Source: Candidatus Woesearchaeota archaeon (lineage in GTDB: Archaea > Nanobdellota > Nanobdellia > Woesearchaeales > WJIZ01). Taken from it: a stretch of 34,603 nucleotides of DNA. Positions 18,697-34,603 of the stretch are shown here, in pieces (positions within the stretch are counted from its first letter, which is position 1; each line of letters starts with the position of its first letter). The position numbers and the translations under genes were made by a program. Below the pieces are notes generated by a model that saw only the letters and a program-made list of their open reading frames with translations, searched no databases and was not told the origin of the DNA. The stretch covers positions 1 to 34,603 of the forward strand of contig JAAOYF010000005.1 of the NCBI GenBank assembly GCA_018221205.1. The letters are read 5' to 3'.

Positions 18697-19059
18697 ATGC
18701 GGAAAAAGAAGTTGAGTAAAGAGGAGCACCATATTCTTCGTGAAAAAGGGACTGAAGCTCCCTATACCGGCAAATACTATATGCATGATGAGAAAGGAGT
18801 CTATGTGTGTGCTGGATGCGGTAAGCCTTTGTTTTCAAGTGAGATGAAACTTGATTCTTTGTCAGGGTGGCCGAGCTTTTTTGATGCTCAGAAAGGAAGT
18901 GTTGAGATGAAGAAGGATAAAAGCCATCTGATAAGCAGGACTGAAATATTATGCAAGAATTGCGGCGGTCATCTGGGGCATGTGTTCAATGATGGGCCTA
19001 AACCAACTGGAAAACGGTTCTGCGTCAACTCGGGAGCGTTGCATTTCAAGAAGAAATAA
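18697..19059 (+). CDS. msrB: Peptide methionine-(R)-sulfoxide reductase
   Basis: GTEAPYTG, two CxxC zinc pairs, GWPSF, GHLGHVFNDGP, RFCVNS catalytic Cys. Confidence 0.96.
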   Translation: MRKKKLSKEEHHILREKGTEAPYTGKYYMHDEKGVYVCAGCGKPLFSSEMKLDSLSGWPSFFDAQKGSVEMKKDKSHLISRTEILCKNCGGHLGHVFNDGPKPTGKRFCVNSGALHFKKK

Positions 19060-19080
19060 GGGCGTTTCGAAATCGTGACA

Positions 19081-19088
19081 TTTATAAA
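19081..19088 (+). promoter_or_regulatory. Putative TATA box (TTTATAAA) for a leaderless rpl34e-rpl14e transcript
   Basis: TTTATAAA ends 22 nt before ATG 19111 in a 51-nt intergenic gap; short palindrome TAGGAAGTCCTA at 19093-19104. Confidence 0.55.
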
Positions 19089-19110
19089 GAGGTAGGAAGT
19101 CCTAAAAACA

Positions 19111-19383
19111 ATGGTTAGACGAGCATTACGGAGCAGAACTCTACGGAGAGTGAAGGTCAAGACACCTGGCAATAGTGTCAAGACTCACTTCAGGAAGAGA
19201 AAACCTAAGATAGCGCATTGCGGAAAATGTGGTGCAATCCTTAAGGGAATCGCCAGAGAGACTCCCCGGAAGATACAGAACATGCCGAAAACGAGGAAGA
19301 AAGTCATGCGTCCTTTTAGTGGTGTGCTGTGTACGAAATGTTCACGAGCCTTATTCAAAGAAAAAGCGAAATCTCTAAGATAG
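19111..19383 (+). CDS. rpl34e: 50S ribosomal protein eL34
   Basis: RSRTLRRVKVKTPG, CGKCG...RPFSGVLCTKC. Confidence 0.96.
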   Translation: MVRRALRSRTLRRVKVKTPGNSVKTHFRKRKPKIAHCGKCGAILKGIARETPRKIQNMPKTRKKVMRPFSGVLCTKCSRALFKEKAKSLR

Positions 19384-19407
19384 GTGGCGACACTATCGGA
19401 GGCAAAA

Positions 19408-19917
19408 ATGGAGATCGGACAGATATGTATCAAAATTGCAGGCAGAGATGCTGGTAGAGAAGCAGTCATTGTAGATATTCTTGACCATGTGTTTGTTCTT
19501 ATTGATGGGAATGTACGCAGGAGAAAGTGTAATGTCATGCATCTGGAACCTACTGCACAAGTGATCAAGATCAAGAAGAAGGCTTCCCATGAAGAGGTCA
19601 AGGCTGAATTTTCTAAATTGAAGATTGGTGTATGGGAAACTACTCCTAAGAAAGCCGGTAAGAGGCCAATTAAGGTTAGGGGCAAGAAAAAGGCTGAGGT
19701 TGAAGAGAAGTCTAAGAAAGCTGTGAAGAAAAAGGCTGCAAAACCTAAAGAAGCGAAGCCTCAGGCACCAGCTAAAGCTGCTAAGGTTGAAAAACCTGCT
19801 GAAAAGAAGGTTGAAGCAAAGAAAGCCCCTAAACCAGCTGAAAAACCGGCTCCTGCAAAGAAGCCTGAAGCAAAGACAGCTGAGCCTGAACCAGTCGAAA
19901 AGGCAGCAAAAGCTTAA
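19408..19917 (+). CDS. rpl14e: 50S ribosomal protein eL14 with about 96-aa K/A/P/E-rich tail
   Basis: IGQICIKIAGRDAG, VRRRKCNVMHLEP; ATG 19408 follows SD GGAGG (19398-19402). Confidence 0.94.
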   Translation: MEIGQICIKIAGRDAGREAVIVDILDHVFVLIDGNVRRRKCNVMHLEPTAQVIKIKKKASHEEVKAEFSKLKIGVWETTPKKAGKRPIKVRGKKKAEVEEKSKKAVKKKAAKPKEAKPQAPAKAAKVEKPAEKKVEAKKAPKPAEKPAPAKKPEAKTAEPEPVEKAAKA

Positions 19918-19943
19918 AAATCTATTTTCATTCTTCTTCTTTT

Positions 19944-20657
19944 ATGGCTGGCATGAATATGGGTATGAGGTCTGAACATAGATTGGAATTGCAGGTAGAG
20001 ATTACAATAGAACAGATGCAGGCTGTTCTTGCGGAAACTGCTCCGTTCAAGGATAGAAAGTTAAAAACAGAAGATATTGAGGATTATCTTAAAGGAACAA
20101 ATTCTCTATTGGTTGATCGCCGTAATCAGCCTGATGAAGAGCTGCGAAAGAGGTATGTTACTACTGCCGCTATCTATACGTTTGCCTTGCCTGTTCTGGG
20201 AATTGAGATTGATCTTGAAATCAGGACGAATTTTGCGAATATTGTGGGAAAAGGGCCTTATGATATGGGAAATCCCCTTGATGTGTATTTCCAACGACGG
20301 GGGGAACGTTTGCAAGTTGTTGGAGATGCAGAAACACTCACTATTGATCAGAAGACAATAGAGAAAGAGGTTGTTTTTAAGAGGGGTGAGCCTGTCAAGC
20401 AAAAATTGACTGAAGCGTTGCACGCTGTCGCTTCACGTCTCAACGGACAGTATGAAAATGAGGATGATTTTGCCAAGGACCATTTTATGTTTATAGGATT
20501 GCATGATGTCTGTGCGCATCTGTTCGGAGTTAGAGTAAAATACCAGAAAGAAGGTAAAGATAAAGTGAGTGCTGTCTTAGATTTGTATGAAAAATTAAAG
20601 ACTGAATATGGTCAGTTTGTCCTTGAGATTCCGCAACACCTACAGCAAGCCAAATAA
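19944..20657 (+). CDS. Hypothetical protein (orphan)
   Basis: 237-aa ORF filling the gap between rpl14e and convergent pheT; no family recognised; HDVCAH motif. Confidence 0.75.
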   Translation: MAGMNMGMRSEHRLELQVEITIEQMQAVLAETAPFKDRKLKTEDIEDYLKGTNSLLVDRRNQPDEELRKRYVTTAAIYTFALPVLGIEIDLEIRTNFANIVGKGPYDMGNPLDVYFQRRGERLQVVGDAETLTIDQKTIEKEVVFKRGEPVKQKLTEALHAVASRLNGQYENEDDFAKDHFMFIGLHDVCAHLFGVRVKYQKEGKDKVSAVLDLYEKLKTEYGQFVLEIPQHLQQAK

Positions 20658-22286
20658 TTCAGTCAGATTCAATTCAAAAGCAGCTACTGGGAATTCTAAT
20701 TCAAAGTTTTCCAGAACTTCTGGAGAGATCTCTCCTATGAATGCGATCTTTTTTCCTTTTACGATGACTCTTCCTACACGTCCTTTGATGAAACTAGGAT
20801 GCTCTACTGAAATGATCTTGTAATCCAGACCGATCATCCTCAAAAGATAGTCTAGAACCTGTCGGGTTCTGGTGTAATCAGTATGTTCTGAGCACAGTAA
20901 AGATGCCAACCGTTCCTGCTCGAGGACTCCTGTCTCTTCTGATGCGTCTTTCTTGAAGACTGTGCCTAATGAAAAGATGTTCTGAGGATATTCGTGATGT
21001 TTGTTCGCTTTCAGCACGTCTAAAAGCATAGGTATGTTCCACGCTGCCAAGACATCGTACTCCTGGTTGAGTGCATTTGCTAACTCTATAAGATTTAGAT
21101 TGATGTTCATGGCCTTATTCTGAAGATCTTTGTTTGTGAGATGGAATGTCTTACATTCTTGCAGGCCCAATCCCGCCAAAATCTCTGATACTTTTCTCTT
21201 GAAGATGTAAAAAGGGTCTTCAGATCCTATGGTAGCTACTTTTGGAATGACTTCTGGAATATTTTCATATCCATACGCTATGGCGATGTCTTCAATCAAG
21301 TCTATCTGATGGAGAACATCTGCGCGATAAGAAGGAACTAATGCTTTTCCTTTCTCATAACCGTAGCCCATTCTCTCCAGATACTTTTTCAAGTCGGTTT
21401 GGGAGAGTTTCAGGCCGAGTCGCTTATTGACATAATCAAGATCTATCTTCATCTCTTTGGGAGAAAGATCTGGTGAGATGCGCTTCTTTCCGTATAGAGA
21501 AAGATCCATCGAATGAATCTCTCCGCCCATATCCGCTAAGGCAGTCACGATGATATTAAGGCAGATGGCCAATACATCATAATCAAATCCAGAACATTCT
21601 ATGAATACCTCCCTGGTCTTTTCAGTTATCTTTCCGATATCATGAGAGTTGATGATCGGAGGAACTGAAAGGATCTTATCATTTGCATCGATGAAGACAG
21701 GGAAGGTGTCCTTTCCTTCCAGAAGGTGTCCGTATTCCTTTCCAGCAGGATGTTTGCTAAGAATTTCCAAACCATTGATCTCTTTTGGATATTCTAAAGG
21801 CTGGAATCTGATATCTTTGGGCTTCATACCAATGAATCTTATGGGTGTTTTGATCTTTTCAAATGGATAGATGCCGATGGCGACCTTCTTTCGGTTTCTT
21901 CCATAAGTGATATGGAGCTTTTCTTGTATCTGGATGACCTCTCTTATTTTCTCGTCGTCAAAATGGAGCCCTTTCACGATAGCGACTGCTGTGTAAGGCC
22001 TTGCTTTCCTCACTGATTCTTCTACAATGAGCTTATGGGGTGATTTTTTTACATTATATTTTTTCAATCCTGTCTTTTCGCCGATGAATGAAGAGAAAGC
22101 CCTGGAAAATCCCTGTTCTGAGAGCATATCTGGGCGGTTCGGAAAAATCTCTACATTGATCTCCTTGTCGTCGATACTTTCTAAATCGGTGCCTAAGAAA
22201 GAAATCCTTTCCTTGAGCTTATCAGTAGGAAGTCTCTTTCCTACGAGCTTTTCAAAGACCTTTCTGTTCAATGTTATGGTTGGCAT
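20640..22286 (-). CDS. pheT: Phenylalanine--tRNA ligase beta subunit (archaeal type)
   Basis: MPTI, PNRPDMLS, QEKLH...GRNRKKVAIG, PPIINS, YRADVLHQIDLIEDIAIAYGY. Confidence 0.97.
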   Translation of the reverse strand: MPTITLNRKVFEKLVGKRLPTDKLKERISFLGTDLESIDDKEINVEIFPNRPDMLSEQGFSRAFSSFIGEKTGLKKYNVKKSPHKLIVEESVRKARPYTAVAIVKGLHFDDEKIREVIQIQEKLHITYGRNRKKVAIGIYPFEKIKTPIRFIGMKPKDIRFQPLEYPKEINGLEILSKHPAGKEYGHLLEGKDTFPVFIDANDKILSVPPIINSHDIGKITEKTREVFIECSGFDYDVLAICLNIIVTALADMGGEIHSMDLSLYGKKRISPDLSPKEMKIDLDYVNKRLGLKLSQTDLKKYLERMGYGYEKGKALVPSYRADVLHQIDLIEDIAIAYGYENIPEVIPKVATIGSEDPFYIFKRKVSEILAGLGLQECKTFHLTNKDLQNKAMNINLNLIELANALNQEYDVLAAWNIPMLLDVLKANKHHEYPQNIFSLGTVFKKDASEETGVLEQERLASLLCSEHTDYTRTRQVLDYLLRMIGLDYKIISVEHPSFIKGRVGRVIVKGKKIAFIGEISPEVLENFELEFPVAAFELNLTELFGLL

Positions 22287-22287
22287 A

Positions 22288-23817
22288 TTATTTCATCCAA
22301 TATTTCATCTCTCGCATCTGCTTGAGATCATTCTTATACAGCTCTCGAATATCTTTTATCTTCCAATACTCTGAAATTGTCCTTCCCATCCCTAATCCCC
22401 ATGCTAAGACGGGGATTTCTTTGCCGATCAATGGTTTTGTCAGCTCTGGCCTGAATATTCCTGCTCCTCCCAGCTCGACCCATTCCTTATGGATAGGATG
22501 CAGCACTTCTACTTCTGCAGAAGGTTCAGTATAGGGGAAATGTGCTGGTCTTATCCTCACATCCAAAAAGCCCATCTTGGTGAAAAATTCTTTCAAGTAG
22601 CCTTTCAGGTTGGTGAAATCTGCATCCGGATCTACGACTATGCCTTCTACCTGGTAAAATTCAAAGAGATGCTTATAGTCGAGTGCCTCGTTACGGAAGA
22701 CCTTTCCTACAGAGAAGAACTTTGCAGGAAGATCCGATTCCTTTATCTTCGCCAAGGTCTGTGCTGATAAGACTGTTGTATGCGTTCTCAGCAGATTCTC
22801 CTTTGCTATCTCCTCTGACCATTTGCCGCCCCATCCTTTTGAACCGGTATCTGCTCCGTTTTCATGGACGTCTTTTATCTTTTTCCAGATAGGGGGAAGC
22901 TTTCCCTGCTTTGGATCCTTGATATAAAAGGTATCTTGCATCTGCCGTGCAGGATGGTCCTGCGGAACGAATAATGAGTCGAGATCCCAAAAAGATGTCT
23001 GAATCATATTACCGGTCATCTCGGTGAAGCCTAGCTCGAGCCAGATCTTTCTGATGTAATCTACTGATTGGTTGACGAAATGGCGCTTTCCACCATATAC
23101 CTTAGGGACATTGATAGTGACATCATATTCCCGGAATGTCTTTTTCTTCCATGAGCCTGTCTTGAGTATCGAGGGAGTAAGCTTATCCAGGGTGTTTTTC
23201 GAATCGATCTTTATTTTAGTGAGTTCTTTTCCTCTTGCTGTCAATTCAATGGTCTTTATCTTCAGCTTTTTCAGCATGAGGATGTCCTTTCTCTTCTTCA
23301 AAGAATCAAAAGCGAACTTTTCTTCTGCTTTCAGGGTGGTGATGTCTATGGGAAATGGTTTCTTGAGGAATCTTTCCTCCAAAGTCTCTTTTGCAGCGAG
23401 TTTTTTGCCGTTCTCTGCTATTGAGATCATCAATTCTTTCTCTTTCTTGATGTTGATGGCGGCTTTTCCTTTCAATGTTCCCAAGCAGATGTTCACTTCT
23501 GCAGGATCCAATGATGCTTTTCTTGCAAGCTCTGAGAGGGGGATCGGCTTTTCTGAGATGTTCTTGAGGAATCTTCTTTCTGGAAGGCCTTTCTCTTTGT
23601 ACAAGAGGCCGTTCTTGCCTAAGGTGAGAGAATCTTTCTCCTGTTCGTGTATCTTGAGAATGTCTCTGTTCGAGAGCCATTGCAGAGCGCGCATCACTTC
23701 GACTTCCTGCATACCGGTCTTCCCTACCAGATCATTGAAATCATTGGTTGCTTTGAGAAAGGGAACTACTTTTCTCTCTAGAGGATGTAAATTCCTTGCC
23801 AGTGTCTTCAGGTCCAT
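22288..23817 (-). CDS. pheS: Phenylalanine--tRNA ligase alpha subunit (archaeal type, N-terminal wHTH region)
   Basis: PQDHPARQMQDTF, LRTHTT, FRNEALDYKHLFEFYQVEG, FPYTEPS, GAGIFRPE. Confidence 0.97.
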   Translation of the reverse strand: MDLKTLARNLHPLERKVVPFLKATNDFNDLVGKTGMQEVEVMRALQWLSNRDILKIHEQEKDSLTLGKNGLLYKEKGLPERRFLKNISEKPIPLSELARKASLDPAEVNICLGTLKGKAAINIKKEKELMISIAENGKKLAAKETLEERFLKKPFPIDITTLKAEEKFAFDSLKKRKDILMLKKLKIKTIELTARGKELTKIKIDSKNTLDKLTPSILKTGSWKKKTFREYDVTINVPKVYGGKRHFVNQSVDYIRKIWLELGFTEMTGNMIQTSFWDLDSLFVPQDHPARQMQDTFYIKDPKQGKLPPIWKKIKDVHENGADTGSKGWGGKWSEEIAKENLLRTHTTVLSAQTLAKIKESDLPAKFFSVGKVFRNEALDYKHLFEFYQVEGIVVDPDADFTNLKGYLKEFFTKMGFLDVRIRPAHFPYTEPSAEVEVLHPIHKEWVELGGAGIFRPELTKPLIGKEIPVLAWGLGMGRTISEYWKIKDIRELYKNDLKQMREMKYWMK

Positions 23818-23818
23818 T

Positions 23819-24628
23819 CTAGTAGCTCCTGGGATAGGATCCCAGCACCTTCACATAAAACATTTTCCCTATCGCTGAAAGGGCCTCTTCCATCTCTGGA
23901 TTGTCTTTGTGACCTTCCATCTCGATGAAAAAGATGTAATCACCGATTTTGCCCTTTGAAGGCTTGGATTCTATTTTAGTCATATTAATCTTTCTCTTTG
24001 CAAGCTCTCCGATCATGGTATAGAGCAGCCCTGGATGGTCTGTCTGCGGGTAAATGGCGATGCTTGTGCGGTCCTTTCCTGTAGGCGAGGTCTTTTCACT
24101 GCCCACCACCACAAATCTTGTTATGTTATATTTGCTGTCCTGGATATCCTTTGCGATGACAGACAATTTATATTTTTTTATTGCGCCGTGTGAAACTATC
24201 GCCCCATACTCCTTTTCTGGAGTTTTTGTTAACTTTTGTGCTGAGCGTGCGTTGCTGTCAGTGAGCATTATCTCTTCTATCTTAAGAGTGCGTCTGATAT
24301 ACTTCTCGCATTGGACATAGGTAAGGGGATGAGTATAGAGATACTTGATGTCCTTTGTCTTTCCTAAAGATGCAAGGAAATGCCTTACTTCAATGGTCAC
24401 TTCAGAGACAATCGGTATGTCAAATTCAAGCAGTGCGTCAAAGGTCTGGCCGATGCTTCCTGAGACTGAGTTCTCTATCGGGATAACCCCATAATCTGCG
24501 TTGTTTGACTTCAGCTCCTTGAACACTTCCCAGACCGTATTCTTGAATGTGCACTCTGCCTCTGGCTCGTATTTCAGCGCTGCCTCGTGGCTGAACGTCC
24601 TTTCCGGGCCGAGTGTGATAATCTTCAT
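23819..24628 (-). CDS. pheA: Prephenate dehydratase with C-terminal ACT domain (no chorismate mutase domain)
   Basis: LGPERTFSH, PIENSVSG, TRF, ACT PGLLY...INMTKIESKP, LGSYP. Confidence 0.94.
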   Translation of the reverse strand: MKIITLGPERTFSHEAALKYEPEAECTFKNTVWEVFKELKSNNADYGVIPIENSVSGSIGQTFDALLEFDIPIVSEVTIEVRHFLASLGKTKDIKYLYTHPLTYVQCEKYIRRTLKIEEIMLTDSNARSAQKLTKTPEKEYGAIVSHGAIKKYKLSVIAKDIQDSKYNITRFVVVGSEKTSPTGKDRTSIAIYPQTDHPGLLYTMIGELAKRKINMTKIESKPSKGKIGDYIFFIEMEGHKDNPEMEEALSAIGKMFYVKVLGSYPRSY

Positions 24629-25884
24629 TGCTCCTCCATGGTGAGATTTGCTCCTAATGCCTGCATCTTCTGTATGAAACCAGGGAAACTTGCATCCAGG
24701 TTATTGGCATTCATGATTGTGGTGGTGCCTGATGCTGCCATTCCTGCGCAGGCAAGGGCCATGATGACACGGTGATCGTTCTGGCCGTCGACGACAGCTC
24801 CATTAAGATGACAACGTTCGATGACCAATCCGTTTGGTGTTTCCTCTATCAGCGCGCCCATCTTTTTCAATTCTTTGGCCATCGCAGCAATCCTGTCGGA
24901 TTCTTTTATTCTTGCATGGCCGACATTTGATAATGTCGTTGAGCCTTGCGAGAAACAGCCGAGGACAGCCATTATCGGCAACAGGTCAGGAGTATTATTG
25001 AGATCTGCCTTTATCCCTCTCAATTCCTCTGGCTTGATGACTGTCTCTTTTCCAAGCTGAATGTCTGATCCTGTCTCTCTCAGGAAGTCGATTATCCTCT
25101 TATCTCCCTGGATGTCTCCGTAATCTAATCCTAAAAGCGACACTTTTGAGTTTGTTATGGCTGCAGCGACCAATGGAAAGGCTGCTGAGGACCAGTCTGC
25201 AGGTATCCTTTTTGTAAATGCATTATATCTCTGATTGCCTTCGATCAAAAAGCTCCCTGATTTCTCCTTGAATCTGATCTTCTGCTCTGCGAGCCATTTC
25301 AGTGTCATGTCGACATAAGGCTTTTCATTGAGTTCATAGACCTGTAAGGTTGTCTTGCTCTCCAACAAAGGAGCTGCCAACAACATGCTTGTCACATATT
25401 GAGAAGATTTTCCGGAAAGCATGATCGATCCTGCACTTATCGGTCCTTTTATCGAGAGGGGTGCGCATCCTTCTTCTGATTTCACCTCTGCCCCTAAGTT
25501 CTGGAGTGCTTGCAGCAACGGCTGCATCGGCCTGCTCTTGATGGATTCATCACCGTCAAAGGTAATCTCTTTATCCTGCAATGCAGCGATGCTTGCCATC
25601 AGCCTCAATGTTGTTCCTGAATTGCAGACATTGATCTCATCCCTCTTTGCCTTGATCTTTCCATTCCTTCCTTTGATTGTCCATGATCTTTTACGTTCTA
25701 CTTTGGCGCCTAATGCCTCTGCTGCTGTCAGCGCAGCCAAACAGTCTTCAGATTGCAGCGGATTCCTTATTATCGACTGCCCTTTCGCGAGAAGCGCGAT
25801 GACTATTGCCCTGATGGTATGGGATTTTGATGGAGGAATGACTATCTCTCCCTTAAGCCTGCTCTGCTCGACGATGAGTTTCAT
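24625..25884 (-). CDS. aroA: EPSP synthase (3-phosphoshikimate 1-carboxyvinyltransferase)
   Basis: PPSKS, NSGTTLR, SSQY, DWSSA, PDL, RIKESDRI, NDHR. Confidence 0.96.
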   Translation of the reverse strand: MKLIVEQSRLKGEIVIPPSKSHTIRAIVIALLAKGQSIIRNPLQSEDCLAALTAAEALGAKVERKRSWTIKGRNGKIKAKRDEINVCNSGTTLRLMASIAALQDKEITFDGDESIKSRPMQPLLQALQNLGAEVKSEEGCAPLSIKGPISAGSIMLSGKSSQYVTSMLLAAPLLESKTTLQVYELNEKPYVDMTLKWLAEQKIRFKEKSGSFLIEGNQRYNAFTKRIPADWSSAAFPLVAAAITNSKVSLLGLDYGDIQGDKRIIDFLRETGSDIQLGKETVIKPEELRGIKADLNNTPDLLPIMAVLGCFSQGSTTLSNVGHARIKESDRIAAMAKELKKMGALIEETPNGLVIERCHLNGAVVDGQNDHRVIMALACAGMAASGTTTIMNANNLDASFPGFIQKMQALGANLTMEEQ

Positions 25885-26909
25885 TGTGCTCCTGCAAGCA
25901 CCAAGGCAGTCATATGCTCAATCACTGGTGCGATCCTCGGACATAAACAAGGATCGTGCCTGCCTGATACTTTTATTTTCACTTTTTTCCCTTTTTTATC
26001 AATGGTCAATTGCTCTTTTGCTATTGATGAAGGTGGTTTGATGGCAGCCCTGAATATGATATCCTCTCCATTCGAGATTCCTGCCACAATACCCCCTGCA
26101 TTATTGGTACGGGTGCGTATTTTTCCTTTCTTGTATAATTGATCATTATGCTGTGATCCTTTCATCTCTACTGCTTTGAAGCCAGAGCCGAATTCAATGC
26201 CTTTCACAGCGCCGATCGAGAGAACTGCTTTTGCTAAATCAGCGTTGAGCTTGTCAAAGACTGGATTTCCTAAACCCGGAGGGCAATTCTTTATCGTGAC
26301 TTCAACAATCCCTCCTATGGAATCGCCTTGCTTCTTGATCTTAAGTATCTCCCTCTGCATCCTTTTTGCGGCTTCCTTATCTGGGCACCTCAATGGGTTT
26401 TTTTCAATCTCTTTCAGGTCTCTTTTTTTTGCTTTTATAGTTCCGACCTGGATGGTGTACGCAAATATTTTTGCTTTTGTCAGTTTTTTTGCTATTGCGC
26501 CTGCTGCAACTCTCGCCACTGTCTCTCTTCCTGATGCTCTTCCTCCTCCCCTATAATCATGGATGCCGTATCTCTTCAGATAAGTGAAATCAGCATGCCC
26601 TGGCCTGAAAACATCTTTCCATCTTTCATATATCCTGGAATCTGCGTCTTTATTGTAGACTACCAAGCAGATGGGATGGCCTGTTGTCCTTCCCTTGAAT
26701 ATACCAGAAAGGATATGGACCTTATCCTGCTCTTTTCTTTGTGTTGTTACGGTGCTTTGGCCTGGCTTTCTCTTATCAAGCTCCTTTTGGATGTCTTTTT
26801 CCGATATCTTGATATTGGATTTGACTCCGTCGATAACTGCACCTAGAGCCTTGCCATGCGACTCTCCGAAAGTCATTATCTTCAGTTTTTTTCCAAACGT
26901 GTTTCCCAT
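25881..26909 (-). CDS. aroC: Chorismate synthase
   Basis: TFGESHG, RPGHAD, GGRASGRET, NNAGG, GRHDPC. Confidence 0.97.
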   Translation of the reverse strand: MGNTFGKKLKIMTFGESHGKALGAVIDGVKSNIKISEKDIQKELDKRKPGQSTVTTQRKEQDKVHILSGIFKGRTTGHPICLVVYNKDADSRIYERWKDVFRPGHADFTYLKRYGIHDYRGGGRASGRETVARVAAGAIAKKLTKAKIFAYTIQVGTIKAKKRDLKEIEKNPLRCPDKEAAKRMQREILKIKKQGDSIGGIVEVTIKNCPPGLGNPVFDKLNADLAKAVLSIGAVKGIEFGSGFKAVEMKGSQHNDQLYKKGKIRTRTNNAGGIVAGISNGEDIIFRAAIKPPSSIAKEQLTIDKKGKKVKIKVSGRHDPCLCPRIAPVIEHMTALVLAGAQ

Positions 26910-27376
26910 TGTATCTCTTCGCTTATTTTCTCGGGTGTCTTGTTATCGCATCCTATAGTATCATCTGCCATCTGGAATATCTTATCTCGCTTTTCGAATA
27001 TCTCTGGAAAGGAAGATTCGTCCATATAAGGGGGAAAGCCTTGCTTCTTGAGGCGTTCAAGCAAAATATCTTTTGAGAGCTTAAGATATACCATCTTTCC
27101 CAGCTTCTTCAGCTTCATCCTGTTTTCTTCGCTGTCTAATGCGCCTCCTCCGACTGCAATGATGGTGTTGTCTGCTTCAAGAGACATTATCACTTCCTTT
27201 TCTTTTTTTTTGAAATGCTCTTCTCCGTGCTTCTCCATAATCTCCCGACAGGATTCTCCTTTTTCTTCGATCATGTCATCAGTGTCGATGAAGTGTGTAT
27301 CATTCTTTTTTGCGACCATCTTTCCTATTGTCGTCTTGCCTGCTGCTTTGAATCCTATAATGATGAGATTCATCAA
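26882..27376 (-). CDS. aroK: Shikimate kinase, bacterial P-loop (AroK/AroL) type
   Basis: IIGFKAAGKTT Walker A, DTD, GEEHF, AVGGG; aro cluster context. Confidence 0.9.
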   Translation of the reverse strand: MMNLIIIGFKAAGKTTIGKMVAKKNDTHFIDTDDMIEEKGESCREIMEKHGEEHFKKKEKEVIMSLEADNTIIAVGGGALDSEENRMKLKKLGKMVYLKLSKDILLERLKKQGFPPYMDESSFPEIFEKRDKIFQMADDTIGCDNKTPEKISEEIQWETRLEKN

Positions 27377-28812
27377 TGATCCACCACGTATTGCAGAACC
27401 GATTCCTCCATAAGCTCCTTATCTGGCTTCTTCCTTGTCCAGAATTCAAACTGCTGCGCTGCCTGGTTGATGAACATCTTGATTCCGGTCACGATCGGGC
27501 ACCTGTTACGCTCTGCATCATTGAGAAGCTTGGTGATCAATGGATTGTAGATCGTATCGAAGACAACCATGTTCCTCAATACATTTCTCGGCACCGGAGA
27601 GTCATGCACCCTCGGAGCCATGCCGATGGGAGTTGCGTTGATCAGCAGATCGACCTTTTCCCAGTCAATCTCATTGATCTTTTTTAGGGACACATGTAGT
27701 GAAGATGCAAGCTTTTTCCCATTCGCCTCTGTCCTATTGATTATGGTAAGCCTTCCTCGTTTCTTCCAGATGCCGAAGGCAATCGCTTTTGCAGCGCCTC
27801 CTGCCCCTATCAGGACGACATTCTTATCCTGGATCTGAATCTTTTCCTGTATCGTGTCCAAGGCAGCTGTCCAATCAGTATTGTAGCCGAAAAGTTTTCC
27901 CTGCTTTATGACGACTGTATTGACTGCTCCTATCTTTGCTGCACGGTCATCGACATGATCTAAGTAGGTCAAGATGGATTCTTTGAAGGGCATGGTGACA
28001 CTCAGCCCTGAAAAAAGGTGTTTAAGGAGGTCAAGCTCTTTAAGATCTTTCAGCTCTACGTTGATATAGACTGCATTCAACTCATGCTCCTTGAATGCGA
28101 GATTATGGACAATATAACTTCTGCTTGCTGAGATAGGGTTTCCGATGAGGCCATAGATATTCACTCCTGGCTTCAATCGGTCTACCCGATAGACTTTTTT
28201 CAGATAGTCACAGGATATCTGGCCTGGAGCAGTGGGTTGGTTGAGATAGCCATAGGTGAGAAAAGAGCCGAAAGGAACGTTAAGTATCCTTGACAACTGC
28301 CCTTTTGGACCCATACAATGCGCTATCATGTCTATGTTGTCTGCTTTGGATTTCTTTAACAAATCAAGAATGATTATGTTATCGCTCAAAGAAACGGCAG
28401 TACAGGCTATCTTTATGATGTCTGGTTTTAACTTTTTGATCTTCTCATATATCTCCTGTATATTCTCTGGAACGTTTTCGTTGTTATGATAAGAGACTAT
28501 GATCTTAGTGTCTTTTTTCGTTTTGATGAATTCTTTTATGGTCTTTTCTCCGTAATCAAGATCAAGATCGATATATTCTGCGCCTTCTTCCATTCCCTTT
28601 TTGAGCAGCCCTAAGCATATCTTCTTCTCGACTCCTTTGCAGGCGAGAATGACTGGCTTTCTCTTCTTTGCGATGATCTCCTTTATATCCTCTGGCTTGG
28701 CATCCATCAATGAATCCATCCTTACCTCTACCAGAGAAGCATTGAATTTGATATGGCTCATCTCGTCAAGAAGGTGCTCTTTTGTTCTCGCAGCTATGGA
28801 ACAGCATATCAT
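27373..28812 (-). CDS. aroDE: Bifunctional type I 3-dehydroquinate dehydratase / shikimate dehydrogenase (AroD-AroE fusion)
   Basis: N-half EVRMD, IVSYH, KIA (Schiff-base Lys), MG...SR, APGQ; C-half SVTMPFK, GAVNT, NTD, GAGGAA, NRT, NATPIGM. Confidence 0.94.
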   Translation of the reverse strand: MICCSIAARTKEHLLDEMSHIKFNASLVEVRMDSLMDAKPEDIKEIIAKKRKPVILACKGVEKKICLGLLKKGMEEGAEYIDLDLDYGEKTIKEFIKTKKDTKIIVSYHNNENVPENIQEIYEKIKKLKPDIIKIACTAVSLSDNIIILDLLKKSKADNIDMIAHCMGPKGQLSRILNVPFGSFLTYGYLNQPTAPGQISCDYLKKVYRVDRLKPGVNIYGLIGNPISASRSYIVHNLAFKEHELNAVYINVELKDLKELDLLKHLFSGLSVTMPFKESILTYLDHVDDRAAKIGAVNTVVIKQGKLFGYNTDWTAALDTIQEKIQIQDKNVVLIGAGGAAKAIAFGIWKKRGRLTIINRTEANGKKLASSLHVSLKKINEIDWEKVDLLINATPIGMAPRVHDSPVPRNVLRNMVVFDTIYNPLITKLLNDAERNRCPIVTGIKMFINQAAQQFEFWTRKKPDKELMEESVLQYVVDH

Positions 28813-29897
28813 GTCATGTCACCCAAGACTTTTTCAGCGATCTCTTTTCTCACAGTGCAATCCATCTTTGCTTTGCCTATCCTTTCCAATAACACATACC
28901 TGACTTCTGACTGTGATTTTTTCTTGTCATAGTGTGTCGCAAGAAGGATCTCCTCTATGGAGAGCTTCTTTATCCTGGTCTCGAACTTCACTTTTTTCAA
29001 CAGGTCAATGATCTTCTGCGACTCCATAAAATTCAGCAGGCCTTTCTTCTCTGCCATCTTAGCTTCTGCTATCATGCCTAATGCAACTGCCTGTCCATGG
29101 GAAACACGATAATTAGAAACTTGTTCGATCGCATGTCCTATGGTATGGCCGAAATTGAGAATCTTTCTGTAGGAGAGCTCTTTCTCATCCTCTTGCACCA
29201 CCACTTTCTTGATCTTGCAGCTCCATTGGATGAATCTTGCTATCACATCCTCATCTCTTGTAAGCAAAGTGTGCATATAGCCGTCCAGATGAAGGAAGAA
29301 TTTCGCATCAAGTATAACAGCATGCTTTATCATTTCAGCGAGGCCGTTCCTGTATTCTGTATCGGAGAGTGTCTTCAGCACAGAAATGTCTATGAAGACG
29401 CGTTCTGGTTGATAGAATGCTCCGATGAGGTTCTTGCCGAAAGGAGTATCGACAGCTGTCTTTCCCCCTATGCTTGCGTCGACCATCGCCAACAATGTTG
29501 TCGGGATTGATAGGTAGGGTATGCCCCTCATATAGGTCGATGCGACAAAACCTGCAAGATCAAGCACTGCTCCCCCTCCGAGCGCGATAATGACCGAGTT
29601 CTTGGTGAGCTGATATTTCATCAACGCATCTTCAATCCTCTCTTTTGTCTGCCTTGTCTTGCTCTTCTCTCCTGCAGGAAAACTAATCAACACTGCTTTA
29701 AGTCCTTCTTTTTTTAGCATATCTAAAAACGTATTTGCATAGAACTTCTTGACATTAGAATCGGTGATGATTGCTATCTTGTCGAGATTCAATGTCTTGA
29801 GTCCTGCTGCTATCTGTGGAAAAAGGTCCTTCCCTATGATGATATCATAGGAATCGTCCTCTTCTCGCTGGATCTTTACTCTTATCTTCTGCATCAT
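28809..29897 (-). CDS. aroB: 3-dehydroquinate synthase (canonical AroB)
   Basis: GEKSK, LGGGAVLDLAGF, PTTLLAMVDASIGGKT, LNFGHTIGHAIE, HGQAV. Confidence 0.97.
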   Translation of the reverse strand: MMQKIRVKIQREEDDSYDIIIGKDLFPQIAAGLKTLNLDKIAIITDSNVKKFYANTFLDMLKKEGLKAVLISFPAGEKSKTRQTKERIEDALMKYQLTKNSVIIALGGGAVLDLAGFVASTYMRGIPYLSIPTTLLAMVDASIGGKTAVDTPFGKNLIGAFYQPERVFIDISVLKTLSDTEYRNGLAEMIKHAVILDAKFFLHLDGYMHTLLTRDEDVIARFIQWSCKIKKVVVQEDEKELSYRKILNFGHTIGHAIEQVSNYRVSHGQAVALGMIAEAKMAEKKGLLNFMESQKIIDLLKKVKFETRIKKLSIEEILLATHYDKKKSQSEVRYVLLERIGKAKMDCTVRKEIAEKVLGDMT

Positions 29898-30907
29898 ATC
29901 CCTCTCCCACCTATCATCGCGATCTTGCCCAGGTCAACCATGAGCTTTGTGAAGCTGGTTATGTTTATTGTCTGCTCGGCGTCTGAGACTGCTTTTGAGG
30001 GGTCTGTATGCACCTCGATCATCAGTCCGTCTGCTCCTGCTGCTATGGCTGCCTTTGATAATGGTGCAACCAATGATCTTTTTCCAGAGGCATGGCTTGG
30101 ATCGACGATAATCGGCAGATGCGTGAGCTCTTTCAATAAAGGTACGGCACTTATATCCAAGGTGTTTCTTGTTGCTTTCTCGAATGTCCTGATGCCTCGT
30201 TCGCAAAGAATGACTTCTCTATTGCCGCGGCTCATGATATATTCTGCTGACAATAACAATTCATCATAGGTCGAGGACATGCCTCTTTTCAGGAGGACCG
30301 GCTTCTTTGTCTTTCCTACCTCTTTCAACAAAGGATAGTTGCACATGTTCCTTGTGCCTATCTGAAGGATATCAGCATATTTTGCTACAAGTTTTACGTC
30401 TCTTGGATCCAATACTTCTGTCACTGTCTTCAGTCCTGTCTCCTTTCCTGCGGCTTCTAGGAATTTGAGCCCTTTCTCTTCCAATCCCTGGAAATCATAT
30501 GGCCCTGTACGGGGCTTGAAAGCCCCCCCTCTAAGAACTACGGCTCCTGCTTTCTTTGCTGCCCTTGCTATCTTCATGATCTGGCCTTTGCTCTCGACAG
30601 CACACGGCCCTGCGATGATGATTATCTTCTGGCCGCCGAAGATGACGTTTCCTACTCTCACTTTGCTTGGCTGCTTCTTTGCTTCTCTTGAAGCCAATTG
30701 ATATGGTCTATGGATGCGGTGGACCTTTTCCACGCCTGGTAGATTAGCAATGGTGTGCCTGTTGAGCTTCCGTTCATCTCCTACGGCTGCGATGACTGTC
30801 CTTTCTTGCCCATATAACGGCACTGGCTCCAGTTTTGCACGCTCGATTCTAGAAAGAACTTCCTTTACTTCTACACGCTTTGCATTTCTCTTAAGAACAA
30901 TAATCAT
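29894..30907 (-). CDS. aroF: DAHP synthase type I-beta with N-terminal ACT/ferredoxin-like regulatory domain
   Basis: MIIVLK N-domain, IAGPCAVES, RGGAFKPRT, QIGTRNM, LCERGIR, DPSH, EVH. Confidence 0.95.
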   Translation of the reverse strand: MIIVLKRNAKRVEVKEVLSRIERAKLEPVPLYGQERTVIAAVGDERKLNRHTIANLPGVEKVHRIHRPYQLASREAKKQPSKVRVGNVIFGGQKIIIIAGPCAVESKGQIMKIARAAKKAGAVVLRGGAFKPRTGPYDFQGLEEKGLKFLEAAGKETGLKTVTEVLDPRDVKLVAKYADILQIGTRNMCNYPLLKEVGKTKKPVLLKRGMSSTYDELLLSAEYIMSRGNREVILCERGIRTFEKATRNTLDISAVPLLKELTHLPIIVDPSHASGKRSLVAPLSKAAIAAGADGLMIEVHTDPSKAVSDAEQTINITSFTKLMVDLGKIAMIGGRGI

Positions 30908-30910
30908 TGT

Positions 30911-31837
30911 TTAGAGTTTTTTCGCAGTCCTAACGATATTTTCTGCAGTCAATCCGTATTTTTCATACAGATCTTTTGGTGCGCCTGACTCTGCGAATGT
31001 ATCCTGGACGCCTATTCTTGCAAGTTTCGCATCACTGTTTTCAGCGAGCACCTCTGCTACAGCCCCTCCTAAACCACCGATGATGTTGTGGTCTTCTGCT
31101 GTTATGACTTTTCCTGTTTTCTTTGCTGATCTGAGGAGTGTGTCTTTATCCAATGGTTTTATTGTTGACATGTTGATGACTTCTGCGTCGATATCCTCCT
31201 TTTTCAGGAGCTCTGCTGCTTCTAGGGCTATCGGGATTAACGGTCCGCAGGCAACTACCGAAAGATCTTTCCCTTCTTTCAGGATGATTGCCTTGCCGAT
31301 CTCGAATTTGTGATTATCGTCGAATAGAATCGGTGTCTTATCTCGGGTGAGACGCATATATGCTGGTCCATCATATTCGGCTAATGCCAATGTCGCTTTC
31401 TCTGCTTCCATTGAATCTGCCGGACAGATGACAACCATGTTCGGGAGGGAGCGATAGATGGCCATGTCTTCGATTGCTTGTGCTGATGCGCCGTCAGTCC
31501 CTGTCACCAAGCCTGCATGCGAGCCGATGACCTTTACATTCATCTTCGGTCTTGCTACAGCATTCCTTATCTGCTCAAATGCCCTTTCTGAGAAAATGGC
31601 AAAGGTAGAGGCGAAGGGAATCTTTCCTGACCATGCCAATCCTGCTGCTGTCACGATCATGTTCTGTTCTGTTATGCCACAGCTTATCCATCTCTCTGGA
31701 AATTCTGGAATAAGCATCCTGCTTTTGGTTGATTTTCCGAGATCTGCTTCTAGCGAAACAACATCCTTATGCTTTTTGGCTGCTTTCACCAAGCCGCGTC
31801 CATATCCTTCACGAGAGGCTTCTAATTTTTGCGTCAA
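30911..31837 (-). CDS. tktC: Transketolase C-terminal subunit (TTG start)
   Basis: ADL..ST, GITEQNM, RAFEQIR, DGASAQ, TIKPLD, EDHNIIGGLG. Confidence 0.92.
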   Translation of the reverse strand: MTQKLEASREGYGRGLVKAAKKHKDVVSLEADLGKSTKSRMLIPEFPERWISCGITEQNMIVTAAGLAWSGKIPFASTFAIFSERAFEQIRNAVARPKMNVKVIGSHAGLVTGTDGASAQAIEDMAIYRSLPNMVVICPADSMEAEKATLALAEYDGPAYMRLTRDKTPILFDDNHKFEIGKAIILKEGKDLSVVACGPLIPIALEAAELLKKEDIDAEVINMSTIKPLDKDTLLRSAKKTGKVITAEDHNIIGGLGGAVAEVLAENSDAKLARIGVQDTFAESGAPKDLYEKYGLTAENIVRTAKKL

Positions 31838-32630
31838 GTTCTTCCAACCCTTTCTTCAATTCTTCATCATTCGGCGCCTTGCCATGGAATTCTGGATTAT
31901 TTTCCATGAACGAAACACCTTTTCCTTTTATGGTATCAGCGATAATAGCGACGGGTCCTTTGCTCTTTTCTGCTTTCTCGAGCGCTTTGAGAATCTCATC
32001 CATATCATGGCCGTCAATCTCGATGACATCCCAGCCAAAGGCTTTCCATTTATCATCCAATGGATCTATCACCAATGTTTTTTCTACAAAATCATCATTC
32101 TGGATCCTGTTCTTATCTATGATCGTTGTTATCTTGAGCTTGTGGAATGATGTGTTCATCGCCGCCTCCCATATCTGGCCTTCCTGCGTCTCTCCATCTC
32201 CTAGCATGACATAGATATGGTATGATCTATTGTCGAGCTTTCTTGCGAATGCAATGCCGTTGGCATAGCTCACTCCCATGCCTAAACTTCCTGCTGACAT
32301 CTCTACTCCCGGTACCCTGATATCAGTATGGCCCTGCAATAAGGAATCTATCTTTCTGAACTTCATGAGCTCTTCTTTCGGAAAGAACCCTTTCTCTGCA
32401 AGGACTGCATACATCCCTGGAGAAGCATGTCCTTTGCTCAGAATAAATCTATCTCGTTCAGGATCTTTCGGCTTGTTTGGATCGACATTGAGCTTATCGA
32501 AATATAATGCAGTTACGATATCAATCATAGAAAGAGATCCGCCAGGATGTCCAGCTTTCGCTGCATGGGTCATCCTAAGGATGTCTTTTCTCAGTTGATG
32601 AGCTAGTTTTTGGAGCTCTTTCGCTTTCAT
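31809..32630 (-). CDS. tktN: Transketolase N-terminal (TPP-binding) subunit
   Basis: GHPGGSLS, RDRFILSKGH, LQGH, GSLGMG, GDGETQEGQIWEA...N, TIKGKG. Confidence 0.94.
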   Translation of the reverse strand: MKAKELQKLAHQLRKDILRMTHAAKAGHPGGSLSMIDIVTALYFDKLNVDPNKPKDPERDRFILSKGHASPGMYAVLAEKGFFPKEELMKFRKIDSLLQGHTDIRVPGVEMSAGSLGMGVSYANGIAFARKLDNRSYHIYVMLGDGETQEGQIWEAAMNTSFHKLKITTIIDKNRIQNDDFVEKTLVIDPLDDKWKAFGWDVIEIDGHDMDEILKALEKAEKSKGPVAIIADTIKGKGVSFMENNPEFHGKAPNDEELKKGLEELDAKIRSLS

Positions 32631-32649
32631 AGTAAAGGGAAAAAGAAAT

Positions 32650-33459
32650 TTATTTTTTTGCCACGGGCTTCATTTCTTTCCAAGCCAGGTTGAAAAGAGT
32701 GTCCATTGCTGAGGCGAAAAAAGGTGTATTGACCCAGATGCCTACATCATATGTCGGGTGGACATCGCTATCATTCATCACCATAAAGATGATCTCTTTG
32801 CCGTCCACTAAAGCGAACCGTGCATTGACAGTGGCGTTTCTCACTTCAGCAGTGGTTCCTAAGTCTTTGACTGCGGCCATGTTCTCCTTTGTTATCGGAG
32901 CTGCTATCTTCACTTTTACGCCACGTTTCTTTAACTTTTCAAAGGTCGGTTTGAGGCCTTCGATCTTCCTTATGAGGCCTTGGGCAGTAGTCATGATAGA
33001 AACAGATTCTTCTGCATCCCTGATTGTCAATTCGAGGTGGTTATAGAGGTTGTGTCTTCCTCTGATCGAACCAGAAAGGTCAGATGGTTCTACCAATTCA
33101 ACACCTTGCTTATGCAAAGCGTTCAATTCTTTGATAACATCAGTCCCTTTCAGATCTTCAAGGTGCTTCAACTTATCTTTTGCTCCTTTTTGGACGTTTT
33201 TCTTGACCCTCTCAAGGACTTCTGTAGGTTCGACAGCAATATATTTTATAGGCTTGCCTAGCTTCATAACAACAAAGCCTTTTTTCTCTAAAGACTCAAG
33301 AACATCATAGCTTCTTGATCTTGGAACATTTGCGATATCAGATAATTCACCTGCAGTGGAAACTCCTCTTGATAACAATGCAGACCAGATTTTTACTTCA
33401 TAGAGATTCAGACCGAAATACCGTCGTAACTTGCTTAAAAATTCGTCCTTCACTATCAT
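32650..33459 (-). CDS. TrmB-family transcriptional regulator (TrmBL2-like architecture)
   Basis: wHTH FGLNLYE...AGELSDIANVPRSRSYDVLESLEKKG, coiled-coil linker, short C-domain (RGVKVKI...F..AW); 269 aa. Confidence 0.9.
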   Translation of the reverse strand: MIVKDEFLSKLRRYFGLNLYEVKIWSALLSRGVSTAGELSDIANVPRSRSYDVLESLEKKGFVVMKLGKPIKYIAVEPTEVLERVKKNVQKGAKDKLKHLEDLKGTDVIKELNALHKQGVELVEPSDLSGSIRGRHNLYNHLELTIRDAEESVSIMTTAQGLIRKIEGLKPTFEKLKKRGVKVKIAAPITKENMAAVKDLGTTAEVRNATVNARFALVDGKEIIFMVMNDSDVHPTYDVGIWVNTPFFASAMDTLFNLAWKEMKPVAKK

Positions 33460-33589
33460 TTTACCTACCCCCTTTTTCTAACAAGCAATCCTTGTTATAG
33501 AAGGGTAAACATAATGTACTACTATTAATATGTTACTGTTTTTTACCTCGGGACAGTGCTATAACTACCCATTAGGTACATATCGTTTT

Positions 33590-33639
33590 TACTCTGAAGT
33601 TAAAACACTTAGAGTATTTAAACATAGCTTATATTTAAA
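33590..33639 (-). promoter_or_regulatory. Putative trmB promoter (TTTAAATA) and downstream inverted repeat
   Basis: Minus-strand TTTAAATA at 33639-33632 (second copy 33622-33615); inverted repeat TACTCT-g-AAGT-N6-ACTT-AGAGTA at 33590-33616. Confidence 0.45.
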
Positions 33640-33667
33640 GATTTAGGTGGCGTATAATAGAAATTTA

Positions 33668-33679
33668 TAAAGAAAAAAA
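33668..33679 (-). terminator. Putative archaeal oligo-T terminator after hppA
   Basis: Minus strand reads TAA TTTTTTTCTTTA directly after the stop. Confidence 0.45.
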
Positions 33680-34603
33680 TTAAGCAAAGAGGTTTAGATA
33701 ACTCAATGCTATAAATAAAGGCACAAAGACCAAAGCCACGATGGACATCAGCTTAATCAAGATGTTCAAACTGGGGCCGGAGGTGTCTTTGAAGGGATCC
33801 CCTACTGTATCGCCGATAACAGCTGCCTTATGGGCATCTGATCCTTTTCCGCCGAACTTGCCTGCCTCGATCCATTTCTTTGCATTGTCCCATGAGCCGC
33901 CAGCGTTAGCCATCATGATAGCCAACAAGACTCCTGTCACCAGTGACCCGGCCAATAATCCGCCTAAAGCCTCTAAACCGAGGAAGAGTCCTACTGCTAA
34001 AGGAGCTATTATTGCGATAAGGCTTGGCAGGACCATCTGCTTCAATGCGCCTTTTGTTGCGATATCAACGCATCTCCGATAATCTGGCTTGGCTTTTCCT
34101 TGCATCAATCCTTTGATCTTCTTGAATTGCCTTCTCACTTCTTCGATCATACGGAAAGCTGTCCTTCCTACTGCCTTCAAGGTCAAAGAGGTAAACAAGA
34201 AGGGTAATGCGCCTCCAATGAACAAACCGATGATGACCATGGGGTTCATGATGTCGATCGACTGCAGATTAGCCTGTGTCGTGAACGCAGAGAACAATGC
34301 CAATGCTGTCAGGGCAGCTGAGCCGATGGCGAAGCCTTTTCCCATAGCAGCAGTCGTATTGCCGACTGAGTCAAGGGCATCTGTTCTCTTTCTCACTTTT
34401 TTGTCTAATTTAGACATCTCTGCAATCCCGCCTGCATTGTCTGCTACAGGACCATAGGCATCTACTGCTAAGCTTATTCCTAGTGTTGAAAGCATGCCGA
34501 CAGCTGCGATTGCAATTCCGTAAAGGCCTGCAAAGAAGTAGGCTACCCAAATAGCAATGGCAATAAAGATGATAGGCAGGACTGTCGAGCGCATTCCGAG
34601 TGC
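33680..34603 (-). CDS. hppA: Membrane-bound H+/Na+-translocating pyrophosphatase (5'-partial)
   Basis: [49 protein letters not shown]; frame open to the window end. Confidence 0.97.

Follow-up and report, generated by a model that had tools for sequence, protein, structure and literature searches.

How does an archaeon from a group usually described as lacking amino-acid synthesis, the DPANN archaea, come to carry a complete shikimate pathway, and why does that pathway run straight into the genes that charge tRNA-Phe? The question is raised by contig JAAOYF010000005.1 of a Candidatus Woesearchaeota archaeon, whose 34,603 nt were analyzed as a whole and are called the window here. On its minus strand, 11 intact, co-oriented open reading frames (ORFs) at 20640-32630 encode a split transketolase, the shikimate enzymes, prephenate dehydratase and both subunits of phenylalanyl-tRNA synthetase (PheRS). 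We consider it probable that this block is a recurrent arrangement of the Woesearchaeales, held at a fixed site between trmB and the ribosomal-protein/secY cluster, and that it is read as one transcript, predicted to start at the trmB promoter, whose products would make phenylalanine and charge tRNA-Phe. The window's copy is a derived, reduced and leaderless variant without tyrA, and likely an unregulated line to phenylalanine only. Genomes, loci and contigs carry the prefixes G, L and C below; the host genome is G000, the window is its contig C18, and its family is f1.

Gene content and junctions of the block

The block opens with two adjacent genes which jointly span the transketolase model NF004559 and are predicted to provide that activity. 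The gene tktN (31809-32630) encodes the N-terminal half, binding thiamine diphosphate (PF00456, 158 bits; model residues 14-282 of 627), and tktC (30911-31837) the pyrimidine-binding and C-terminal half (PF02779 and PF02780; residues 318-623 of 627). The third gene, aroF (29894-30907), encodes a type I-beta 3-deoxy-D-arabino-heptulosonate 7-phosphate (DAHP) synthase with an N-terminal ferredoxin-like (FXD) domain (PF18152 and PF00793; NF006421, 491.7 bits against a cut-off of 335). It is followed by aroB for 3-dehydroquinate (DHQ) synthase (28809-29897; TIGR01357, 394 bits against 305), an aroD-aroE fusion (27373-28812) of type I dehydroquinase (PF01487, residues 3-208) and shikimate dehydrogenase (PF08501, PF01488 and PF18317, residues 222-473), aroK for a P-loop shikimate kinase (26882-27376; PF01202, 113.7 bits), aroC for chorismate synthase (25881-26909; PF01264, 456 bits; NF003793, 466 bits against 321) and aroA for 5-enolpyruvylshikimate 3-phosphate (EPSP) synthase (24625-25884; TIGR01356, 421 bits against 287). 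All seven shikimate activities, i.e., DAHP synthase, DHQ synthase, DHQ dehydratase, shikimate dehydrogenase, shikimate kinase, EPSP synthase and chorismate synthase, are encoded, each with a Pfam match above the gathering score.

The last biosynthetic gene, pheA (23819-24628), encodes a prephenate dehydratase with a C-terminal ACT domain (PF00800 and PF01842; NF008865, 253 bits against 219; best PDB match 4lub), and neither Pfam nor NCBIfam finds a chorismate mutase domain in the protein. Next come pheS (22288-23817; NF003210, 528.8 bits against 350), whose product is 59-69% identical to those of Woesearchaeota loci, and pheT (20640-22286), which reaches 526.4 bits with the archaeal model pheT_arch (TIGR00471, cut-off 282.65) and stays below the cut-off of the bacterial model pheT_bact (184.5 against 402.65). 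Both subunits pass archaeal equivalog models, which identifies an archaeal-type heterotetrameric PheRS, as the preliminary description had proposed in calling pheST native.

The junctions from tktN/tktC to pheS/pheT measure -29, +3, -4, -4, -4, -28, -4, -4, +1 and +1 nt, i.e., five overlaps of 4 nt, two longer ones of 29 and 28 nt, and gaps of 3, 1 and 1 nt. Gene order nearly follows pathway order, the exception being aroC ahead of aroA. The reading of 11 co-oriented genes joined by overlaps or gaps of 1-3 nt in near pathway order is borne out by ORFs, Pfam and NCBIfam alike.

A recurrent arrangement at a fixed site

The fusion of the aromatic genes to pheST had been taken as a mark of this genome, and this does not hold: it is common to at least 20 species-level genomes from several families, at the same site. 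Matches to the window's aroC turned up in 14 of 60 relatives; across the order, 65 of 400 other genomes have one, including five of the six in family f1. Three of the 65 genomes are unpublished (G214, G137 and G212); without these the count is 62 of 397, and loci were mapped from the remaining 62 by placing the window's proteins and one relative's TyrA on the flanks of aroC. The aro genes, with or without tyrA, continue through pheA directly into pheS-pheT in 20 of the 62 loci. About a dozen further contigs end too early to judge the linkage, and two loci are linked otherwise, G195 with a 4-kb gap and G078 with pheST upstream of aroF. The whole order trmB-tktN-tktC-...-tyrA-pheA-pheS-pheT is found in eight loci (G006, G015, G349, G124, G262, G140, G080 and G270); in that of G124 (L064), aroF and aroB were not detected and a 1.8-kb stretch lies in their place. 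Several relatives' loci run on into L14e/L34e/secY on the opposite strand, as the window does. Within family f1 the module stands at the site in three of the five members fetched, and the contig of a fourth ends inside aroC.

Relatives without the module define the site. In six named Woesearchaeota loci of this kind, trmB is followed after 71-128 nt (0.6-1.2 kb in two) by pheS-pheT; relative to these, the nine biosynthetic genes of the window sit exactly between trmB and pheS, and trmB is the conserved upstream neighbor whether the module is present or not. Because the module-less genomes have trmB next to pheS, and five of the six have no match to chorismate synthase (PF01264) anywhere, the aromatic pathway, judged from gene maps, either occupies this one site as a single block or is missing. 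Locus L017 (CAYSWQ010000002.1), labelled 'uncultured Methanosarcinales archaeon', shows trmB-pheS-pheT-L34e synteny and groups 100/98 with a Woesearchaeota metagenome-assembled genome (MAG) in the tree of PheS+PheT; its label is probably wrong.

Across the phylum, aroC was matched in 21 of 300 other genomes, all but one partial match in the same order, the share of the 300 lying outside the order not being given by the search output. About one in six Woesearchaeal species keeps the shikimate pathway, and many species have the block physically linked to the two genes whose products charge tRNA-Phe. The preliminary description had itself named, as an outcome that would speak against it, a cluster common and vertically inherited in the lineage; synteny upstream of pheS, together with the distance correlation and composition given below, largely points to this. 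By comparative sequence analysis, the block is a recurrent Woesearchaeales arrangement and an old lineage trait, not a fresh acquisition.

One predicted transcription unit

The gene directly upstream, trmB (32650-33459, minus strand), encodes a TrmB-family regulator with a helix-turn-helix and a partial effector domain (PF01978 and PF11495), and beyond it lies the 3' part of a membrane pyrophosphatase gene (hppA). A T-rich spacer of only 19 nt (32631-32649) separates the trmB stop from the tktN ATG, where relatives have 144-388 nt with a leader ORF and hairpins. Between hppA and trmB, at 33615-33644 on the minus strand, are boxes resembling a B recognition element and TATA box; we predict that they serve as the promoter of trmB and probably drive the entire unit. 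TTTAWATA is found among them at 33615-33622 and 33632-33639, and the window contains two copies of AAANNTTTAWAWA, where 0.11 would be expected. Between 20640 and 32650 TTTAWATA is absent, and the boxes preceding trmB are the sole such upstream boxes on this strand. Since TTTAWATA is lacking inside the block and the boxes lie only upstream of trmB, we predict a 12-gene unit, i.e., trmB plus the block, transcribed from the trmB promoter. The prediction is based on gene spacing and the lack of consensus TATA boxes within the block. Overlapping stop and start codons would in addition couple translation.

Some caution is due, as archaeal promoters can deviate from the consensus scanned for, so that internal promoters are possible, and operon structure, promoter use and translational coupling are all predictions. 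The adjacency could thus come without coupling: a non-consensus promoter within the 3' part of pheA might serve pheST, the biosynthetic genes might be a unit apart, and the tight spacing might reflect genome compaction alone. PheRS is essential and the pathway dispensable, many relatives being without it, and in L055, L048 and L086 the gap before pheS is 187-427 nt, which leaves room for a promoter. In the window, however, a single nucleotide separates the pheA stop from the pheS start, no TATA-like box was seen by eye in the 30 nt ahead of pheS, consensus boxes are missing from the entire block, and the linkage has been kept across distant families. We regard uncoupled adjacency as rather unlikely and prefer the 12-gene unit.

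Phenylalanine as the sole predicted product

The NCBIfam equivalog or subfamily cut-offs are passed by DAHP synthase, aroB, the aroE domain, aroA and aroC. The remaining steps of the route to phenylalanine lie outside the window. A chorismate mutase gene is encoded on another contig (CM_2, G000:C26:6999-7238, 88.7 bits), and four class I/II aminotransferase genes (PF00155) are found elsewhere in the genome; with the prephenate dehydratase and its ACT domain, the phenylalanine branch is complete by gene content, aminotransferase specificity being predicted. In the proposed scheme, the chorismate mutase of contig C26 and an aminotransferase would complete the route. The genome also encodes ribulose-phosphate epimerase (Rpe), enolase and genes of the phosphoenolpyruvate (PEP) synthase/pyruvate phosphate dikinase type, and phenylalanine prototrophy, suggested in the preliminary description, is plausible from this gene content. 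Its label for the cluster, from erythrose 4-phosphate to Phe-tRNA, is overstated, with chorismate mutase on C26 and the aminotransferases elsewhere. The enolase match (G000:C63:4734-5567) contains one in-frame TAG.

Two points count against this reading. The aroD domain and aroK fall below their NCBIfam cut-offs (137.8 against 139.3 and 109 against 204, respectively), and RpiA (PF06026) was not found in the genome, RpiB not having been searched for. Other amino-acid markers are patchy: dihydrodipicolinate synthase is present, His_biosynth gave a weak match only, and ketol-acid reductoisomerase was not found in the genome.

The branch to tyrosine has been lost from the cluster. In 19 of 20 linked relatives, a gene of about 285 aa stands between aroA/aroC and pheA, and the G006 copy is a prephenate dehydrogenase, TyrA (PF02153 and PF20463). 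In the window the aroA stop overlaps the pheA start at this place, by 4 nt, and the in-cluster tyrA is gone; its loss from this copy is certain. The host genome yielded no PF02153, no tblastn match using the relatives' TyrA, no chorismate-binding enzyme (PF00425) and no aromatic amino-acid hydroxylase (PF00351), and neither a tyrosine nor a tryptophan branch was recovered; at an estimated 94.8% completeness, genome-wide absence of tyrA and trp genes means 'not found'. Because neither prephenate dehydrogenase nor a chorismate-binding enzyme was found, phenylalanine is the sole predicted product of chorismate in this genome.

Reciprocal losses are seen among relatives. G004 (L048) and G108 (L067) have tyrA directly before pheS and no pheA there, and G351 (L086) resembles the window in that its cluster contains pheA but not tyrA. 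In G106 a chorismate mutase gene (L070:10201-10479, minus strand; CM_2, 70.4 bits) lies between the leader ORF and aroF, and in G070 a 101-aa ORF without a Pfam match (L066:15321-15626) occupies the same place. The losses of tyrA here, of pheA in G004 and of the whole module in many relatives are natural variants through which to ask which aromatic amino acid these cells must still make.

A leader ORF in relatives, absent from the window

In relatives, a short ORF ending in aromatic residues stands ahead of the first gene of the aro cluster, with ends such as ...EFFLNNSFFYFYFW in G349, ...FAFFYYFFE in G174 and ...SFFYFF in G003. A leader was defined by a fixed criterion as an ATG ORF of 8-50 codons with at least five F, Y or W among its last eight residues. 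Of small ORFs within 400 nt upstream, 22 of 132 qualified, and in the remainder of these loci 34 of 10086 did (odds ratio 59), an enrichment whose significance is overstated since the relatives are not independent of each other. A qualifying ORF is present in 21 of 33 assessable loci, for example at L063:16791-16871(-), L054:16208-16291(-), L089:14883-14954(-), L058:1948-2022(+) and L101:2633-2710(+). In each of four metagenome contigs found by the leader motif (L111-L114), one of which matches G270, tktN follows after about 190 nt. In the leader alignment, synonymous changes (TAT/TAC, TTC/TTT) leave the peptide unchanged.

By eye and alignment, a TTTAWATA-like box begins about 30-34 nt before the leader ATG in most loci, a distance consistent with a leaderless mRNA. 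In 17 of 29 leaders a hairpin begins with the base next to the stop codon, and in 25 of 29 no more than 5 nt beyond it (mean z -2.13); a stable structure begins at most 3 nt past the stop in 16 of 29 leaders compared to 106 of 600 control small ORFs. When ten leader-hairpin regions were aligned with MAFFT, RNAalifold predicted no shared fold, the hairpin arms being out of register, and Rfam returned nothing relevant in eight relatives' loci at the gathering score or in two leader regions at E <= 1.

Further elements recur in these regions. After the leader hairpin, a CAT(C/T)GTT-like motif and T-runs were seen by eye. A second conserved box, AAA(A/G)TTTAAAAA, lies about 33-95 nt before tktN in L063, L064, L068, L098, L101, L103 and L111-L114, between the leader hairpins and tktN; it is found by eye in tkt-type loci and not in aroF-type loci, and may serve as a further promoter or belong to an RNA element. 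In G329, a 5S rRNA gene (L091:9779-9894, minus strand) sits just upstream of the promoter of the aro-operon leader.

The relatives' leader is a candidate attenuator that looks like a bacterial-kind leader-peptide sensor, and could act through termination, factor loading or masking of a ribosome-binding site. No aromatic-rich small ORF was found in the window, and no qualifying small ORF with the promoter-plus-hairpin signature in the host genome. The 19-nt spacer between trmB and tktN is a probable relic of the leader region. In the proposed course of events, one deletion in this genome removed tyrA and a second cut the leader region to 19 nt, which would have fused the operon to trmB and abolished leader-based control; control of flux would then rest on the allosteric FXD domain of DAHP synthase and the ACT domain of prephenate dehydratase.

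Taken further, the aro-phe(-pheST) operons may be controlled by a bacterial-style Phe/Tyr(/Trp) leader peptide on a leaderless archaeal mRNA, with the window as a natural knockout in which leader and tyrA have been deleted and fusion to trmB has left a constitutive line to phenylalanine only. We put this forward tentatively and hold it to be somewhat more doubtful than not. If true, DPANN archaea would regulate an operon through sensing of amino acids by the ribosome, and the operon would be one that includes the cognate tRNA synthetase; functional leader ORFs would extend leader-peptide sensing to archaea. A literature search, in which supplements were not covered, found no paper on archaeal leader-peptide attenuation and none on aro-pheST linkage. 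The leader peptide of the relatives, rather than the block itself, is the more novel lead.

Proposed inheritance and loss of a mosaic module

The module is proposed to have entered the site between trmB and pheS, or to have been there already, before several Woesearchaeal families split; largely vertical inheritance, repeated loss of the whole module and some in-place gene replacement, as with two deep types of aroA, would have followed. Across 21 linked loci, concatenated aro distances correlate with those of PheS+PheT (Mantel r 0.562, none of 5000 permutations as high). A tree of the concatenated aro proteins does not conflict with the PheST tree, both recover f1 as a coherent family, and the aro proteins of the window are closest to those of its own family.

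The record is not that of a strictly inherited unit, and three points count against so simple a history. The Mantel correlation is only moderate. EPSP synthase occurs as two deep types at the same operon position in linked loci, and the type of the window is interleaved with Raymondbacteria-, Victivallales- and Bacteroidales-labelled sequences, MAG labels that may be wrong; the presence of two types together with bacterial-labelled sequences makes the module mosaic. Finally, the polarity could go either way: the module may have been inserted once, long ago, and lost later in some lines, or it may have been there ancestrally. Loci also differ in how aroK, aroC and aroA are ordered, and G015-type clusters have no aroK. 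In the PheS+PheT tree, module-bearing loci fall in at least three places, with two changes forced by well-supported branches, and L004, L015 and L017, which have no module, share a nested group with the family of the window (95/96). Over the history of the site, the module was thus gained or lost three times or more.

Such patchiness would be explained better by spread within the Woesearchaeales than by many independent losses, the module moving as a cassette by homologous recombination through its trmB and pheS flanks. Conservation of trmB is unusually high (69-89% against 40-70% for neighbors), which fits this idea, as do the scatter over the PheST tree and the two AroA types. The AroC proteins of G349, G124 and G262 are 64-68% identical to that of the window, and their PheS/PheT 40-49%. 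Against it stand the correlated aro and pheST distances and the coherence of f1 in both trees, and no mobile-element genes were seen beside the module, a weak argument since the loci were mapped with window proteins only. Spread by recombination may have contributed, but we judge it a minority possibility and retain largely vertical inheritance with repeated loss.

A recent acquisition, by which aromatic genes of foreign origin would have come to lie ahead of a native pheST in this one genome, is very improbable. In its favor, the module lies between two genes that are adjacent in module-less relatives, the AroA has bacterial-labelled near relatives at 48-53% identity, and the aroK is of the P-loop type. 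However, the same module stands at the same site in the 20 linked loci, including those of f1 named above, the aro proteins are closest to the family's own, and composition does not stand out: the tetranucleotide profile of the module correlates with that of the genome at r 0.929, compared to 0.944 +/- 0.054 for random genome chunks, which puts it at the 15th percentile. Recent transfer was rejected on the grounds of this composition and of a site common to relatives, and is largely refuted. What remains of the earlier idea of an acquired module on native pheST is the insertion between trmB and pheS, the bacterial affinities of AroA and the P-loop aroK; the module itself is old and lineage-wide, co-diverges with pheST and has a genome-like composition.

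One member of f1 departs from the family pattern. In L052 (G002) the order is pheA-aroF-aroB-aroA-aroK-aroDE-aroC, and the encoded proteins join those from a distant family (L050, G026) with 100/100 support, which suggests a separate origin.

Host, assembly and flanking genes

The host is, from its sequence affinities, a Woesearchaeota-like DPANN archaeon with a small genome of 1.28 Mb in 74 contigs. Its closest PheS matches are MAGs of Woesearchaeota, Pacearchaeota and Nanoarchaeota (top identity 59-62%), and the window falls with G001, G004 and G006 of f1 in a 100/100 group on the tree of PheS+PheT. For G001 and G006, EPSP synthase has the same sequence as proteins that NCBI lists under Candidatus Woesearchaeota archaeon, a phylum that NCBI taxonomy assigns to Nanobdellati. 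SecY is 66-76% identical to that of relatives' loci, and TrmB 85-89% within f1 and 69-79% in other relatives. Together these place the host in the Woesearchaeales, and the PheS neighbors, the tree and the named AroA proteins confirm the earlier guess of a DPANN host; the placement draws on kinship codes and MAG names and not on a ribosomal-protein phylogeny, which counts against it.

A break in coverage at the pheA/pheS or trmB/tkt junction had also been named as an outcome that would speak against the preliminary description, and none appeared. The contigs of one public run containing this stretch show an even depth of 4-8 over 19000-34100, and a single contig of that run covers 32581-33868 and bridges the trmB/tktN junction. 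At pheA/pheS the run pieces extend only 22 nt on one side, and this junction was not counted as bridged. The run is kept as contigs, probably of DNA, and gives no word on expression. The MAG origin of the contig is the sole ground for supposing an assembly chimera, i.e., an aro-bearing organism joined to a Woesearchaeal contig, and we reject this for practical purposes as having a negligible chance of being right, given flanks syntenic with relatives on both sides, identical junctions in independent assemblies, the even depth, the bridged trmB/tktN junction and a tetranucleotide composition that fits the genome.

On the plus strand, 1-20657 is occupied by an archaeal ribosomal-protein/secY cluster convergent with pheT. 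Its last ORF (19944-20657) encodes 237 aa without a Pfam match and overlaps the 3' end of pheT on the opposite strand by 18 nt at its own 3' end. At 989-4449, between the L13/S9 genes and the L3 operon, lie a leucyl-tRNA synthetase gene with the PF13603 editing domain, which we take to mark the bacterial type of this enzyme, and then a ketopantoate reductase gene; a TTTAAATA box at 959-966 stands 23 nt ahead of the synthetase ATG. At the other end, the first 27 residues of an open-ended pyrophosphatase fragment are identical between window 34523-34603 and G000:C31:35832-35912, and the two contigs probably abut.

Comparison with known systems

Most Woesearchaeota MAGs of oxygen-deficient zones are without the shikimate pathway, according to PMC10936187. 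The aroD-aroE fusion is reported in Methanofastidiosa, Methanomassiliicoccales, Planctomycetes and Acidobacteria, with DPANN not mentioned in the section consulted (PMC11237513). A protein atlas shows this fusion to be frequent in Acidobacteriota, Planctomycetota and plants, with Methanobacteriota as the commonest phylum of the top-ranked cluster; the atlas neighbors of the window's AroD-AroE have the same fusion and indicate no donor.

The closest parallel in gene order is the aromatic cluster of Thermococcales, tktN-tktC-DAHP synthase-aroB-aroD-aroE-aroK-aroA/aroC-tyrA-pheA. Both have a split transketolase heading a collinear shikimate cluster. The Thermococcales cluster ends with tyrA and pheA, whereas the window has an aroD-aroE fusion, a DAHP synthase with an FXD domain and no tyrA, and its genes run into pheS-pheT. 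AroK is of the P-loop type, in contrast to the usual archaeal shikimate kinase, which is of the GHMP type.

For DAHP synthase the best PDB matches are 4grs and 1rzm. The enzyme of Thermotoga maritima (1rzm, 3pg9) matches over residues 1-331 with 339.8 bits and has the same two-domain layout, and it is inhibited allosterically by Tyr or Phe; by analogy, allosteric inhibition through the FXD domain may be expected in the window's enzyme. As a further likeness to the Thermococcales cluster, the catalytic part of the window's enzyme reaches 328-330 bits with the 262-aa chains 1zco and 4c1k, slightly more than the 299 bits with 3pg8.

Long aromatic operons are also known from bacteria. The Bacillus subtilis aromatic supraoperon, aroF-aroB-aroH-trp-hisC-tyrA-aroE, is TRAP-regulated and likewise chains units of the aromatic pathway in a long co-directional array with overlapping genes, but holds neither an aminoacyl-tRNA synthetase nor a transketolase. 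Enterobacterial pheL-pheA and pheM-pheST are controlled by leader-peptide attenuators, which make the supply of phenylalanine and the expression of PheRS depend on how much phenylalanine is available. The relatives' short ORF resembles these in ending in runs of Phe/Tyr codons with a hairpin directly after it, ahead of the operon. It differs in having an archaeal promoter, a spacing that implies a leaderless mRNA, and biosynthesis and pheST joined in a single operon, of which the window carries a copy without the leader.

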